From: Octopus vulgaris
Lineage: Eukaryota
Length of the DNA stretch: 64,000 nucleotides
Assembly (NCBI GenBank): GCA_951406725.2
Contig: OX597843.1
Span: forward strand, 17,794,001-17,858,000
Reading direction: 5' to 3'
Shown here one piece after another: positions 3,056 to 60,838 of the stretch; the first letter of the stretch is position 1, and every line of letters starts with the position of its first letter. A program made the translations under genes and the position numbers. Under the pieces are notes generated by a model. That model was given only the letters and a program-made list of their open reading frames with translations. It had not been told where the DNA came from and ran no database searches.

Positions 3056-3114
3056 TACCGTATTGGTCCAATTTCGGGGTTAATTCACAAGAAATTTTCC
3101 CCTCTTCAGCGGCA
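3056..3114 (-). ncRNA. Type I hammerhead ribozyme, canonical core, in (TA)n-flanked insert 2841-3163
   Basis: tgccg CTGAAGA gggg-19nt-cccc GAAA ttgg-a-ccaa TA cggta: all three stems pair and the core is canonical. Confidence 0.85.
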
Positions 3115-3892
3115 CATACGCAAGATATAAATGAAGCAAGCACCAAGTCCCGAGCAGACTAAGTATATATATATATATATATATACATGTACATATACAC
3201 ACATATATACTATTTGTTTTCGTACTTCATGTTATTTACACAGCTTGTGACGTCCTGTACCCATATGCATTAATATATATATTTTAATGGAAAAAGCTAC
3301 TTATTAATTAGGTATCTAACAATTACTAAAAGAAAGCAATTATTAAAGGCTTGACTATCTGGAAATATTTTTTATAAATTCTTGTTCCAAGACATTACTT
3401 ATAGTTTCGATTTCTGAAGGGCAGTGAATATTTGAGCTACAAGTTTTCACAAATTTAAAAATTCGTTGCATTGTCTGTGGAGTGGATCTGATAAACAATA
3501 TTAATTGGTTACAGGCGAAATTTTCCGTTTTCATTTGCAACAGTCCTTCACTCTCTCTCTTGTCTCTATTTTCATTAATGATAATTTAATATATATTCAT
3601 TTCAATGTTTTCATTACAAGATTTAATTCACTATTTGCAAAACCCACAGTTTATTCTATATACCTAATGTAAAAAAATTATTTATTAAATGAATAAAATA
3701 GCTGCATAATTTTGAGGCTTATTTTTGATAAAATGGAAAATTTTTAATATACCGGTACAATTTTCTTTTAAATTAAGAAGTGATTTTGTTGGTATGGTTG
3801 TTTGGAACGCTATAAGTCTTACAATAATAACTATGTGATCGCTGCTATTTCTAGCACGCTAAACCTTGAAGTTTGTTTAAATTACAGATATA

Positions 3893-4291
3893 GTCTTTTC
3901 TACTCAAGGCACAAGGTCCGAAATTTTGGGAGAATGGGCCAGTCGATTAGATCGATCCCAGTACGCAACTGGTACTTAAATTTATCGATCTCGAAAGGAT
4001 GATAGGCAAAGTCAACCTCTGCGGAATTTGAACTCAGAACGTAATGACAGACGAAATACCTATTTCTTTATTACTCACAAGGGGCTAAACACAGAGGGGA
4101 CAAACAAGGACAGACATAGGTATTAAGTCGATTATATCGACCCCAGTGCGTAACTGGTACTTATTTAATCGACCCCGAAAGGATGAAAGGCAAAGTCGAC
4201 CTCGGCGGAATTTGAACTCAGAACGTAACGGCAGACGAAATACGGCTACGCATTTCGTCCGGCGTGCTAACGTCTCTGCCAGCTCGTCGCC
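3893..4291 (-). mobile_element. tRNA-derived SINE family 2 (Meta/MESC-like core), internally duplicated
   Basis: Core GCCTTTCATCCTTTCGGGGTCGAT-AAT-AGTACCAG twice, 184 bp apart; 16-bp TSD TTAAATTACAGATATA at 3877 and 4292. Confidence 0.85.
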
Positions 4292-4670
4292 TTAAATTAC
4301 AGATATATTACAACTATGATAAACTCCCGAAGGAAATATTTACTAAGCAAGTAAGATGTTTTTTTTATAAATTGAAGTTTTCAGGAGAATTTACTTTCTC
4401 AACTTGCTTTTATTATTAAATACACCAAGTTCACAAATTGAAATACTCAGTAGAAGATAGTTTTTAACGAGCTTTTCATTTCATATTTATTTCAGTCATT
4501 GCAATGTTCTCTCCCCCACCCCCGCCCTCTATCTCTTTGTCAGACACCCACGCACCAATATAATCACGCACACACTCCAGATTTGACTCGCAGAAAACTG
4601 CAGTATTTCTGTAGTGTGTGTGTGTGTGTGTGTGTGTGTGTGTGTGTGTGTGTGTGTGTGTGTGTATCAT

Positions 4671-5650
4671 AGGTGCAGGCGTGGCTGCATGGAAAGAATC
4701 TTACTTCCCAACTATGGTTCCGGGTTCAGTCCCTCTGCGTGGCACCTTGGGCAAGTGTCTTCTACTATAGCCTCAGCTGGACTAAAGCTTTGTGAGTAGA
4801 TTTGGTAGACGGAAACTGAAAGAAGCCTGTCGTTTATATATATATATTATATATATATATATATATATATATATATTATATATATATATATATATATATA
4901 TATATATATATATATATATATATATATATATATATATATATATATATATGTATGTATGTATATATATATATATATACTTATATATATGTATGTATGTATA
5001 TATAAATATATATATATATATATATATATGTATGTATATATATATATATCTTTGACCTCTGGCCGAAATCAGATCGCCATGTTGATTCGTTAGCTACTGC
5101 ACGCATTTTTTTCTCTCCTTCTTTCTGTGTTTTTCTCTCTCTGTGTATCTTTCTGTTGAAGAGCGTAGGCTCGAAACGTTAAAGACTTGTTTTATTTATA
5201 TTTCCTGAGCGCCATACTAATACAATTGTTCGTTTGTTTTCCACCTGCCTTCGTCTTTTGTTTATTTTCATAAAGCTTCCCGTTATATATATATATATAT
5301 AAATGACCGAAACTGGTACTGAAATGTTCTTTATAAAATTATTTTAGCATTTTCTATTTTGACTTGTTTTTTCATATATATATATATATATATATATATA
5401 TATATATATATATATATATATATATATATATATATACTTATATATATGTATGTATTTATATGTATGTGTGTCTGTGTTTGTCCCCCCGTCATCGCTTGAC
5501 GACCGGTGTTGATGTGTTTATGTTCCCGATAAGCTAAGTACTGGGCTTACAAAGAATGGCCTGCGTTGATTTCTTCGACTGATACCCTTTAAGGCGGTGC
5601 CCCAACATCACAGCAGTCAACTGACTGAAACAAGTTAAAGAATAAAAGAA
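4671..5650 (+). mobile_element. SINE family 1 split by an expanded (TA)n that carries an HHR insert
   Basis: 5' half 4671-4832, 3' half about 5465-5650; the intervening TA tract holds the 5055-5283 insert. Confidence 0.75.
5148..5185 (+). ncRNA. Minimal hammerhead-like motif, core variant CUGUUGA
   Basis: tcttt CTGTTGA a gagc-gtag-gctc GAAA cg TT aaaga; same family as 60210 and canonical 60801. Confidence 0.65.
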
Positions 5651-5680
5651 CATATATGTATACGTTGGGTGGGGCATTAT

Positions 5681-5868
5681 GCCGGTAATAATAAACACAC
5701 GCCCTGGTTCGGTCCTTTATTGGCTTTTGGTGCGAAATGCATTCTTGTTTATATCGCTAGCGGGAGATAAATCTCCAGCGCCGAGACCACCAGATCTCGG
5801 GATTTCGACATTCTCTGGTCTCGTTAATGATGGGCACTTGACGTTTAGAAGTAGCCACGTCTCATCTC
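5681..5868 (+). mobile_element. Short dispersed repeat, block-permuted relative to 9649-9851
   Basis: Shares both blocks with 9649-9851 (minus) in swapped order; contains GAAA-tgca-TT (possible HHR 3' half). Confidence 0.65.
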
Positions 5869-6754
5869 AGCGCCAGCGATATATAGAAAATCAGTACCAG
5901 AAGAAGCACTAGTACCACAACTTGCAAGTGAGCTTGTTTTTTAGATTTTCTAAAGAATTCAAAGCCGGTCCTCCAAGTAACGACGTTTAGTATACGAATA
6001 GGTAAATGCAAAACATGCGATTGAAGATAGAAAAAATGGGTAATGGATGTATCAGCATATTTCAAGAGTTATTGCTTCTTCGGTAATGGGGGAAATAGTA
6101 AGACGAAGACGTATTCGTATACGAAACGTCGTAATTTGCAGAGCTAGTTCTGAATTCTATAGAAAATCTATAGAAATAAACTTAAGAGTATTGCACTGCT
6201 AACACAAGGTAAAAATATTGCACTGCTAACACAAGGTAAGGCACAATATTGACTTGTAAATGGTTAATATACTTGCTAGTATATCATTTCCATGCTAGCA
6301 ATTAATAAAACTAGGATTGCTCCCCAACAACTGATCCTTCATTTTAGGGGCCAACGGATATTTCAGCCCCAACAATTGTTGATAATCTACAAAGACTAAT
6401 TTTATCAAAATCCACTGCGGACACCACGGGAGTGCAGAGGCAAAGAAAAATAGAACGGACCGGAGAGGGAGCAGAATTTGTTAAGACTGTCGCACTGTGC
6501 TCCGGACAATTCGTCACAGCTCGTTGGAGTGTCCAGTATATTAGAAGGGTGCAGAAAAAAAACTGGACAATGGAGAAAGAGGGAGAGAGATAGAGTGAGA
6601 CATAGACAAACAGGCACACAGACAGACAGACAGATATTGATTGCTTCGAGCCCCTCAAGACGTGGTTAGACTGCTGGATCAACCCTGGTTTGGGGCTACG
6701 CAACAACACCACCAACACAACCACCCCCGCTGACGTCTCAACAACTACCTCACG

Positions 6755-59060: not shown

Positions 59061-59523
59061 ATAGAATGGTTGTATACTGTCAATCTAACAAGAACGTGAC
59101 ACCACCGCTGTATAGCCCTAGGAAGCATCGAACGCCTCCTGATAGCTTTGACACATTTTTTCCTGTGTCCTTATATACATATACGAAGGGGAGACAAACA
59201 CCCCGGCCGCCGGAACTGCATCTAGGGACACCGTGTTTCAGGATCATTGTCCTTCATCGGCCTAGAGTAGCAGACACCGGTCGGCTGGTGATATTTGCCT
59301 CGACTTCGTATCTGTATATATGTAAACTCAGTGAAGTTTATTCACTGATGCAGTTCCGGCGGCCGGGGGTGTTTGTCTCCCCTTCGTATATGTATATAAG
59401 GACACAGGAAAAAAATGTGTCAAAGCCCATCAGGAGGCGTTCGATGCTTCCTAGGGCTATACAGCGGTGGTGTACCCCCTACTGTCACATTCTTGTTAGA
59501 TTGACAGTATACAACCATTCTAT
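59061..59523. mobile_element. Fold-back element, 160-175-bp arms, HHR in spacer
   Basis: 59061-59222 reverse-complementary to 59347-59523. Confidence 0.85.
59221..59266 (-). ncRNA. Type I hammerhead ribozyme, U4C core variant
   Basis: tctagg CCGATGA agga-caatga-tcct GAAA cac-g-gtg TC cctaga; all stems perfect. Confidence 0.8.
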
Positions 59524-59678
59524 ATATATATAAATATATATATTTATGTATATATATATATGTATATGTATATATAAATATACTATGTATATATATACAT
59601 ATATATATATGTATATATATGTATATAGATATATATATGTATGTATATATATATGTGAAGGCGCATGGCTATATATGT

Positions 59679-60019
59679 GAAGGCGCATGGCTCAGTGGTT
59701 AGAGCGTCGAGCTTACGATCGTGAGGTTGTGAGCTCGAATCCCGGACCGGGCTGCGTGTTGTGTTCTTGAGCAAGGCACTTTATTTCACGTTGCTCCAGT
59801 TCACTCAGCTGTAGAAATGAGTTGCATCGTCACTGGTGCCAAGCTGTATCGACCTTTGTCTTTCCCTTGGATAACACTGGTGGCGTGGAGATGGGAGGCT
59901 GGTATGCATGGGCGACTGCTGGCCTTCCATAAACAACCTTGCCCGGACTTGTGTCTAGGAGGGTAACTTTCTAGGTGCAATCCCATAGTCATTCATGACC
60001 GAAGGGGGTCTTTACCCTT
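59679..60019 (+). mobile_element. tRNA-derived CORE-like SINE (family 3), full length
   Basis: TGGCTCAGTGG A box, GCTCGAATCC B box, CTTGAGCAAGGCACTT core, CTTTACCCTTT tail. Confidence 0.85.
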
Positions 60020-60209
60020 TATATAAATATATATATATATATGTGTGTGTATATATATATATATATATATATATGCATAGATACATGCACATATTCATAC
60101 TTATATATATATATATATATATATATATATATATATATATATACATGTTGATTCGTTAGTTACTGCACGCATTTTTTTCTCTCCTTTCTGTGTTTTTTTT
60201 CTCTGTGTA

Positions 60210-60247
60210 TCTTTCTGTTGAAGAGCGTAGGCTCGAAACGTTAAAGA
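60210..60247 (+). ncRNA. Minimal hammerhead-like motif, core variant CUGUUGA
   Basis: Identical to 5148-5185. Confidence 0.65.
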
Positions 60248-60800
60248 CTTGTTTTATTTATATTTCCTGAGCGCCACTACTAATACAATTGTTTGTTTGT
60301 TTTCCACCTGCCTTCGTCTTTTGTCTATTTTCATAAAGCTTCCCGTTATATATATATATATATATATATATATATATATATATATATATATATATATATA
60401 TATATATATATATATATGTATATATATATATATACATGTATATATATATATATATATATATATATATATATATATATATATATATATATATATATATACA
60501 TATATATATATATATATATATAGATACATGCACATATTATACTTATATATATATATACATTTATATATATATATATATATAGATATACATGTATATATAT
60601 ATATATATATATATATATACATGTATATATATATATGTATATATATATACATGTATATATATATATATATATATATATATATATATATATATATGTATAT
60701 ATGTATATATATATATATATATATATATATATATATACATGTATATGTATATCGTTCGTTCCTACACGCATTTTTTTCTCTCCTTGTTTTTTTCTATGTA

Positions 60801-60838
60801 TCTTTCTGACGAGGAGCGTAAGCTCGAAACGTAAAAGA
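60801..60838 (+). ncRNA. Minimal type I hammerhead ribozyme, canonical core
   Basis: tcttt CTGACGA g gagc-gtaa-gctc GAAA cg TA aaaga. Confidence 0.8.

Follow-up and report, generated by a model that had tools for sequence, protein, structure and literature searches.

The palindromic stem III sequences in this part of the Octopus vulgaris genome belong to hammerhead motifs, the motifs lie in the ends of repetitive elements, and the same palindromes are reused between lineages. The window, a stretch of 64,000 nucleotides, holds 25 sites with a type I hammerhead motif or what is left of one, from about 15 repeat families. We consider it quite probable that they are relics of hammerheads of the Penelope-like element (PLE) family whose palindromic stem III pairs two copies, the selectivity of stem I being a by-product of divergence. 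In the window inventory the motif is complete at 16 of the 25 sites and defective at 9, the defective ones being from families that also have complete copies. At 14 sites a full core occurs together with the U-H and with a stem I of 4 bp or more. At 54581 and 58067 the core is full and stem I is weak, with 2 bp followed by two U-U mismatches. The sites and the insertions that carry some of them are as follows.

3056 to 3114, minus strand: complete type I hammerhead, TTGG-A-CCAA; family of about 800 pattern matches, with a GA centre in a third among the matches listed
5148 to 5185, plus strand: remnant with A-CG-U stem III and an A6U core, the usual form in its family
8677 to 8710, minus strand: TAATTA-family motif ending at the cleavage triplet, just past the palindrome; inverted partner of 9039, defective
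9039 to 9072, plus strand: TAATTA-family motif ending just past the palindrome, defective
18791 to 18829, plus strand: complete minimal hammerhead, U3-A8 core, A-AT-U stem III
19659 to 21373, unstranded: retrozyme-like insertion built from a 560-nt repeat unit, present twice in direct and once in inverted orientation; PLE ORF not found
19949 to 20001, minus strand: complete hammerhead, CGTACG, U-U at the base of stem II, in the inverted copy of the 560-nt unit
20543 to 20595, plus strand: complete hammerhead, CGTACG
21103 to 21155, plus strand: complete hammerhead, CGTACG, 560 nt downstream of 20543
21746 to 21822, plus strand: CATATG hammerhead with a long stem II, defective (stem I mismatch)
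24945 to 24978, plus strand: CTC-T-GAG motif within a short inverted repeat, defective (5' strand of stem I gone)
25172 to 25246, plus strand: complete hammerhead, CAATTG, C4 core variant
25552 to 25586, plus strand: complete minimal hammerhead, A-CG-U, C4 core variant; stem I and core unlike those of 60801
26551 to 26609, plus strand: complete core, TCC-A-GGA, stem I of 6 bp
27005 to 27064, minus strand: CTGCAG motif, core gone; complete in 396-nt tandem arrays elsewhere
27534 to 27580, minus strand: complete hammerhead, stem III of 4 bp, 8-nt loop with CTAG; inverted partner of 27603
27603 to 27649, plus strand: complete hammerhead of the same family as 27534; 7,506 genome-wide pattern matches versus 3 in the control
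31999 to 32049, minus strand: complete hammerhead, G3-C8 core variant, A-ATAT-U
36601 to 36659, minus strand: complete hammerhead, TCC-A-GGA, related to 26551
49718 to 49768, minus strand: A-ATAT-U family copy, defective (3-8 pair broken)
50925 to 50961, minus strand: A-AT-U family copy, defective (G12A)
54196 to 58378, unstranded: two 3' ends, in inverted orientation to each other, of a young Hydra-type Penelope-like element; identity to L282 is 97.5% over 1.9 kb
54581 to 54692, minus strand: CAGCTG hammerhead, 85-nt stem II, weak stem I, within the terminal repeat
58067 to 58178, plus strand: CAGCTG hammerhead, inverted twin identical to 54581
59221 to 59266, minus strand: complete hammerhead, CAC-G-GTG, C4 core variant
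60210 to 60247, plus strand: A-CG-U family copy, defective (A6U)
60801 to 60838, plus strand: complete minimal hammerhead, A-CG-U

The motifs at 20543 and 21103 are the only complete pair in the window that shares both strand and family. The TAATTA and CTGCAG motifs of the window are validated only through complete genomic copies elsewhere. The strict match at 23128 is non-palindromic, has no relatives in the genome sample and was treated as chance, and 6124, 5230 and 38258 were left out since they lack a core or stem I. In an Rfam scan, the hammerhead family was absent among the 150 of 311 matches listed, which were microsatellite and hairpin matches to miRNA models.

Each of the 13 palindromes named in the original prediction follows the GAAA of a hammerhead motif or remnant without a gap, and so does the loop at 27600 that contains CTAG. 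The accompanying statement that almost every stem III is a different palindrome with a centre of 0-1 nt describes a real design, with qualifications: ACGT is used by two different window families and the 27600 loop is imperfect. A short palindromic stem III and loop III are present across the set, with the 27600 family as the exception. As a separate point of notation, that list of palindromes mixes registers, for ACGT, AATT and AATATT take in the universal A15.1/U16.1.

The palindromy exceeds chance. Among 46 clusters of descriptor matches, picked blind to stem III, 27 have a stem III that closes to 0-1 nt (32 with G-U), while stem II, the internal control, does so in none. The descriptor used for an 800-kb sample of the genome was likewise blind to pairing within stem III and did not require the 10.1-11.1 pair, a version demanding that pair having lost most motifs; it gave 33 matches, with a Watson-Crick palindrome in 18 and in 25 when G-U was allowed, compared with 1-4 matches and 0-1 palindromes in each of five shuffles. 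Genome-wide, a pattern with four free inner bases matched 18,316 times versus 1,524 in the control. A hand count of the 100 matches listed found 71 perfect and 14 G-U self-complementary palindromes, where base composition predicts about 8 perfect ones. Related lineages moreover differ by paired changes, and in this set, pre-selected for perfect palindromes, 4 of 5 fall at pairs that are impossible in a monomer (CATG/CGCG, CACGTG/CATATG, CAATTG/CGATCG, CCCGGG/CTCGAG). Core positions covary in the manner of a catalytic core, with C3-G8, U3-A8 and G3-C8 variants.

The stem II control and the paired changes at inner positions support the dimer-type design that had been proposed for these motifs. 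This design is established knowledge, already in print (PMC4209133, PMC3088659, PMC6765202), and the palindromic stem III of our motifs agrees with the published idea that such motifs probably cut RNA in pairs. In 31 of 31 clusters with at least 4 inner bases the predicted active homodimer lies 7.7-19.5 kcal/mol below two active monomers. In the five clusters of the 2-nt class stem III is impossible in the monomer, and the energy comparison is not meaningful for them because that monomer has no stem III. The predicted homodimer ensembles argue against the dimer, however, since of 21 window motifs only 9 reach at least 0.5 for the intermolecular A15.1-U16.1 pair and 11 stay at or below 0.16. 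The model has no tertiary core, and three of its rows (5156, 60218 and 49760) were entered in a wrong core register.

One could argue that the motifs with palindromes of 6-14 nt act mainly as short-hairpin monomers and that a dimer is required only in the 2-4 nt class. With 6-14 inner bases a motif can form a hairpin of 2-4 bp alone, which speaks against a strict need for the dimer. The centre is also loosely kept: the TTGG family has a 2-nt GA centre in 33 of 100 copies among the matches listed (hand count), the centre base is free in CTC-N-GAG, and the 27600 family, with its 8-nt loop, has a perfect palindrome in none of 100 genome copies among the matches listed and a monomer probability of the A15.1-U16.1 pair of 0.49. 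In the literature, a coral hammerhead cleaves efficiently as a monomer and the invertebrate type is a 2-bp stem with a tetraloop (PMC7229834), and such stems are drawn as ordinary hairpins (PMC8557442 File S2). However, a monomer leaves unexplained why the loop bases are complementary in 71 of 100 hexamers among the matches listed and change in pairs, and the monomer probability of A15.1-U16.1 is at most 0.14 in 19 of 21 window motifs. We therefore regard this explanation as unlikely, if still worth weighing. It bears on the suggestion that a need for two copies would spare transcripts that hold a single one: such sparing would be plausible for the 2-4 nt class and uncertain for the 6-14 nt class, in which a short hairpin could form alone.

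As far as the palindrome is concerned, the claim that each family has its own pairing code finds no support. The palindromes range from 2 to 14 nt and comprise 32 sequences, of which 10 recur in 2-5 unlinked lineages. Within the 100 matches listed for each pattern, C-NN-G takes all 4 possible palindromes and C-NNNN-G takes 12 of 16. Since palindromes are reused by unrelated families, the palindrome alone is not a family code. One may still propose that stem III and stem I together form a selected code, which prevents cross-cutting among coexisting families and allows same-family pairing in trans. The combination of stem I and stem III is indeed distinct in 36 of 36 clusters, and heterodimers are predicted a median of 20 kcal/mol above homodimers. 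Stem III can start on both sides in 341 of 630 family pairs and one hammerhead can assemble in only 28, but stem I permutation gives 26.2; a cross-family stem I of at least 4 bp is found in 40 of 1,260 ordered pairs versus 28.5 +/- 7.1 for random stems. These counts come from only 36 clusters and have low power; they leave out 10 of the 46 clusters (palindrome-less singletons or an empty stem III), which were kept in the comparison of stems II and III. Cross-family compatibility is thus not below either of two null models, and therefore there is no sign of a selected code; the predicted specificity would come mainly from stem I and be no stronger than chance. Additionally, the pairing of RNAs in trans requires high RNA concentration. 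The palindromes listed in PMC8557442 vary between families, but in its File S2 six Hydra magnipapillata families share the stem I ATGG/CCAT and five share CTT-T-AAG. On balance a selected code is improbable. A literature search on a family code, a heterodimer test and octopus hammerheads, which covered few subscription papers, gave nothing relevant beyond PMC8557442.

According to the reading that we prefer, in which the palindrome pairs two copies, stem III likely joins them in a double hammerhead, by which a tandem precursor RNA would be cut to unit lengths. Both stem III and stem I would then form between the two copies, so the partner would have to match in both. Most of the selectivity likely comes from stem I; it would have arisen incidentally as families diverged through paired changes, without selection for a code. 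A copy would likely pair mainly with the second terminal repeat of its own RNA or with the next tandem unit there; same-strand pairs of motifs flank PLE ORFs at 5.6 kb (L282, L292) and 4.8 kb (L284) and also occur in tandem units of 560, 396 and about 360 nt. Most genomic copies would be solitary or inverted relics, probably inert, copied from RNA that was uncut or rejoined at that site. In 29 of 30, 21 of 21, 22 of 22 and 16 of 16 cases the copy continues beyond the cut site for 18 nt or more, and in one family 50 of 100 copies among the matches listed have an opposite-strand neighbour within 1 kb. Another family has 9,813 pattern matches and carries A6U in 98 of 100 among the matches listed; therefore canonical cleavage may not be needed for spread. 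The palindromes might instead arise from, or be maintained by, a mutational process (template switching in reverse transcription), or serve RNA pairing or protein binding without cleavage. That would agree with the inverted structures right at the motif, the copying through the cut site and the expanded A6U family, but it is very improbable given that stem II never closes down in the same motifs, that the core covaries like a catalytic one and that dimer cleavage of PLE and retrozyme motifs has been measured (PMC4209133 and PMC7229834).

The motifs belong to Penelope-like elements, one of them Hydra-type, and to tandem non-coding derivatives, and only some of the families are tied to a PLE ORF. 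The CAGCTG family of the window lies in the terminal repeat of an element with reverse transcriptase and GIY-YIG endonuclease (L282, L291, L292), and the CGATCG, CTCAGAG and CATG families elsewhere occupy the same position in such elements; for the 27600 family a place in a PLE terminal repeat (L288, L294) is suggested. The L282 translations, read by eye, contain RWR (for RWK), DKT, a CxCX5C linker, and CxxC and CxH in the C-terminal endonuclease, which, together with insertions within (TA)n, resembles Hydra-clade PLEs (PMC8557442). Hydra elements are shorter than 3 kb and have one ORF, whereas the CAGCTG element has a 5.6-kb period and an ORF in two pieces (L282, L292); therefore we call it Hydra-type and do not file it as a member of the Hydra clade. 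Pfam matched 0 of 8 pieces of the Hydra-type ORFs, and it matched RVT_1 and GIY-YIG in a 781-aa element. For the 560- and 396-nt units, a PLE ORF was not found in L286.

The design being already known, the finding itself changes little. What this one genome offers is a natural panel: its motifs number in the tens of thousands, their stem III palindromes range from 2 to 14 nt, and related lineages differ by paired changes. With it, the limit of dimer dependence, and the shares of stem I and stem III in partner choice, could be measured directly. A much bolder proposal is that a lineage address is formed by stem I together with the stem III palindrome. The RNA of a transcribed family would then pair in trans with any of the thousands of solitary copies of its family carried by host transcripts and cut them, as a family-specific switch on host RNA. 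We hold this to be highly unlikely; were such cleavage to take place in cells, the transcripts of a host would become conditional targets of the retroelements in its genome.

Among known systems the closest are the hammerheads with a minimal or short palindromic helix III in the pLTRs of metazoan Penelope-like elements (Cervera and de la Pena 2014, PMC4209133), for which dimer cleavage was reported by Lunse et al. 2017, as summarised in PMC6765202 and PMC6466107. With these the octopus motifs share the type I topology, the conserved C3-G8 or U3-A8 core, in many cases an extra base between 9 and 10.1, the palindromic 15.2-16.2 and loop 3, and the presence of many families per genome, mostly as single or opposite-strand copies. 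They differ in that many families have palindromes of 6-14 nt, a stem II of up to 85 nt and U-U or another mismatch at the base of stem II, and in that one family has a G3-C8 core, a variant not seen in the passages considered. Hydra-clade hammerheads (Craig et al. 2021, PMC8557442 section 11 and File S2) similarly have a stem III of 3-4 bp with a 0-3 nt centre that differs by family; CTC-N-GAG, CCA-A-TGG and CAC-A-GTG are among the examples, an Octopus element is included, and neither 'dimer' nor 'palindrom' occurs in the main text. In the double hammerheads of ASBVd and newt satellite 2 (Forster 1988, as cited in PMC4209133 and PMC3088659 Fig. S8) a palindrome likewise merges stem III of two copies, an arrangement proposed to restrict cleavage to multimers; unlike these, the octopus motifs lie in the ends of DNA retroelements and occur in dozens of sequence variants within one genome. 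Finally, the 396- and 560-nt units are tandem, non-coding and carry one complete type I hammerhead each, as do metazoan non-LTR retrozymes (PMC7229834; bioRxiv 10.64898/2026.07.22.740005). The 560-nt unit is longer than the 170-400 nt reported for retrozyme RNAs. Contigs of four runs cover it, with RNA ends and strand not visible in them, and were not counted as evidence of expression. The U-U at the base of its stem II is also found in axolotl HHR_Amex2.

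The palindromes from which a dimer-type design had been proposed do mark stem III, as each lies directly 3' of GAAA in a type I hammerhead, either whole or reduced to a remnant. The AT-rich, microsatellite-dense window holds 25 hammerhead sites of about 15 families, of which sites 14 are complete, 2 more are complete but have a weak stem I, and 9 are defective; the TAATTA and CTGCAG motifs are incomplete here and complete motifs with these palindromes are found elsewhere in the genome. A descriptor that imposed no condition on the internal pairing of stem III gave 12 window matches, of which 9 have a centre of 0-1 nt, and 33 in 800 kb of sampled genome, 18 of them Watson-Crick palindromes (25 if G-U is tolerated), while each of 5 shuffles yielded 1-4 matches and 0-1 palindromes. 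Patterns with free inner bases matched the 2.8-Gb assembly 18,316 times for the 6-nt class (control 1,524) and 35,187 times for the 4-nt class (control 8,451); counted by hand among the first 100 matches listed, perfect palindromes numbered 71 and about 70, against about 8 and 28 predicted from base composition. Among 46 clusters of descriptor matches chosen blind to stem III pairing, 27 (32 if G-U counts) have a stem III that narrows to a 0-1 nt centre, whereas stem II, the internal control, does so in 0. There are true exceptions. The 27600 family (7,506 matches, control 3) has an 8-nt loop, imperfect in 100/100 listed copies, and among the first 100 listed copies of the TTGG-A-CCAA family (hand count) the centre is 1 nt in 59, GA in 33 and of another form in 8.

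In a double hammerhead the palindromes of both copies join in antiparallel orientation, and each copy's 5' stem I strand is matched by the 3' stem I strand of its partner, an intercopy arrangement that follows from the topology in Fig. 1 of PMC4209133. That the dimer matters is indicated by paired palindrome changes between related lineages: CATG/CGCG (flanks 85-87% identical), CAATTG/CGATCG (85%), CCCGGG/CTCGAG (81%), CACGTG/CATATG (71%) and TTGG-A-CCAA/TCGG-T-CCGA (71%), the first four changes affecting pairs that in a monomer would have to close a loop of at most 2 nt. This set was pre-selected for perfect palindromes, therefore it is the blind counts that carry evidential weight. By nearest-neighbour energies, the active homodimer is preferred to a pair of active monomers in 31/31 clusters with at least 4 inner bases, the difference being 7.7-19.5 kcal/mol. 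The dimer-type design stands as likely, on stem III versus stem II closure, paired changes and predicted homodimer energies. Other points count against it: in ensemble folding the intermolecular A15.1-U16.1 pair reaches at least 0.5 in only 9/21 window motifs, longer motifs can form a 2-4 bp hairpin as monomers, and efficient monomer cleavage is described for a coral hammerhead (PMC7229834). Therefore, obligate dimers are predicted as likely for the 2-4 nt class only, and a predicted dimer preference of longer palindromes is likely but unproven.

It is well supported that the window motifs are real and add new families to a design already known. A supplementary figure legend in PMC3088659 deals with the palindromic nature of stem III and its loop, the work of Lunse et al. 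(2017) is summarised in PMC6765202 and PMC6466107, retrozymes are treated in PMC7229834 and in a 2026 preprint (bioRxiv 10.64898/2026.07.22.740005), and section 11 and the supplement of PMC8557442 describe Hydra-clade hammerhead stems that differ between families.

The original prediction also gave each family its own pairing code. This does not hold for the palindrome, since 10/32 palindromes recur in 2-5 lineages that BLAST does not connect beyond the palindrome itself, although a distant relationship may exist among some CAGCTG lineages; the first 100 matches listed for the 4-nt class contain 4/4 C-NN-G options and those for the 6-nt class 12/16 C-NNNN-G options. Because most palindromes start with C and finish with G, a stem III of at least 2 bp on both sides is possible in 341/630 family pairs (36/46 clusters used) and full pairing in 13. 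Assembly with a 4 bp stem I is possible in only 28/630 pairs, thus cross-family selectivity is predicted. The combinations of stems I and III are distinct in 36/36 clusters, but the predicted selectivity would come mainly from stem I. A selected code is not borne out: permuting stem I left 26.2 assembling pairs against 28, and cross-compatible stems I numbered 40/1,260 against 28.5 +/- 7.1 for random stems, so that predicted selectivity is no greater than chance, within the limited power of a 36-cluster sample. According to the table in PMC8557442, one stem I is common to six families of H. magnipapillata and one palindrome to five, a reuse like that in the octopus motifs. The palindrome code therefore fails as worded, and what survives is an unselected match of stems I and III. 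Our literature search found no paper on a family code; Lunse et al. (2017) may already treat partner specificity.

As to the proposed sparing of single-copy transcripts, only one complete same-strand, same-family pair is present in the window (20543 and 21103). A same-family, same-strand partner lies within 5 kb in 10 of the first 100 listed 6-nt matches (hand count); for the first 100 listed copies of the 27600 family, a same-strand neighbour lies within 10 kb in 8 and an opposite-strand one in 75. In four families the sequence continues past the cut site in 88/89 copies, so the RNAs they were copied from had either stayed uncut at that site or been rejoined, which fits inactive solitary motifs but is not proof. 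Many inverted pairs of the 27600 family join just upstream of the core, a few bases away (window 27534-27649 and listed copies), and 14/30 copies share at most 7 nt of upstream sequence; this motif may be where reverse transcription stalls or turns. Both arms of an inverted insertion (8677-8710 / 9039-9072, a single event) stop no more than 2 nt from where cleavage is predicted, as would a copy of cleaved RNA.

Several window motifs depart from the usual core or stem II base:
5148-5185 and 60210-60247: A6U family (9,813 pattern matches genome-wide); among the first 100 matches listed, 98 carry U as the sixth core base.
31999-32049 (-): G3-C8 core pair, retained in several relatives, a third variant besides C3-G8 and U3-A8.
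20543, 25172, 26551, 27603 and 36601: mismatch (often U-U) at the stem II base instead of G10.1-C11.1.
The A6U family is thus a large expansion carrying a non-canonical core. Low activity is reported for A6C (PMC3088659). The stem II mismatch, shared by several window families, is also reported for axolotl HHR_Amex2.

The CAGCTG motifs (54581, 58067) sit in two 3' ends arranged as an inverted pair, with 97.5% identity over 1.9 kb to an element at L282, a locus outside the window, where two same-strand motifs spaced by 5,575 nt surround reverse transcriptase (RT) and GIY-YIG pieces with RWR, DKT, CxCX5C, CxxC and CxH motifs. These motifs agree with the Hydra clade of Penelope-like elements (PLEs) as described in PMC8557442, but the L282 element is longer and its ORF lies in two pieces. 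A Pfam search did not recognise the L282-type ORF. In this young element, several near-identical copies (L282:2538-5415, L292:3981-6858, also L283 and L291) have the ORF split at nearly one position, which could reflect an intron, a frameshift or a lesion common to them. CGATCG and CTCAGAG motifs (L284, L296) are likewise preceded upstream by similar ORFs, and 6/30 loci related to a 781-aa RT and GIY-YIG element carry a CATG motif on the downstream side of GIY-YIG matches, at about 500-1,000 nt. The latter elements (L098-L115, L188-L191) have mostly U3-A8 cores and 4-nt palindromes, whereas Hydra-type ones (L282-L296) have C3-G8 cores and 6-7 nt palindromes, so the length of the palindrome may depend on the clade of the element. 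Tandem units of 560 and 396 nt hold the CGTACG and CTGCAG motifs, units in which no PLE ORF was found and which look retrozyme-like; for window families other than these two and CAGCTG, no ORF was linked.

Tandem units of about 360 nt with CGCG hammerheads (L284:7381-8464) form another retrozyme-like family, and fragments of a Hydra-type element akin to L284 lie in the window at 24100-24447 (95% DNA identity) and 19490-19555. One listed genomic motif closely resembles the octopus Hydra-1 hammerhead as given in File S2 of PMC8557442. Other non-LTR retrotransposons have left broken frames for endonuclease and reverse transcriptase, read by eye, at 38466-45357 and 51292-53943, and a frame rich in threonine and histidine over a trinucleotide repeat (6606-7184, +) may be a mucin-like exon or a mere microsatellite.
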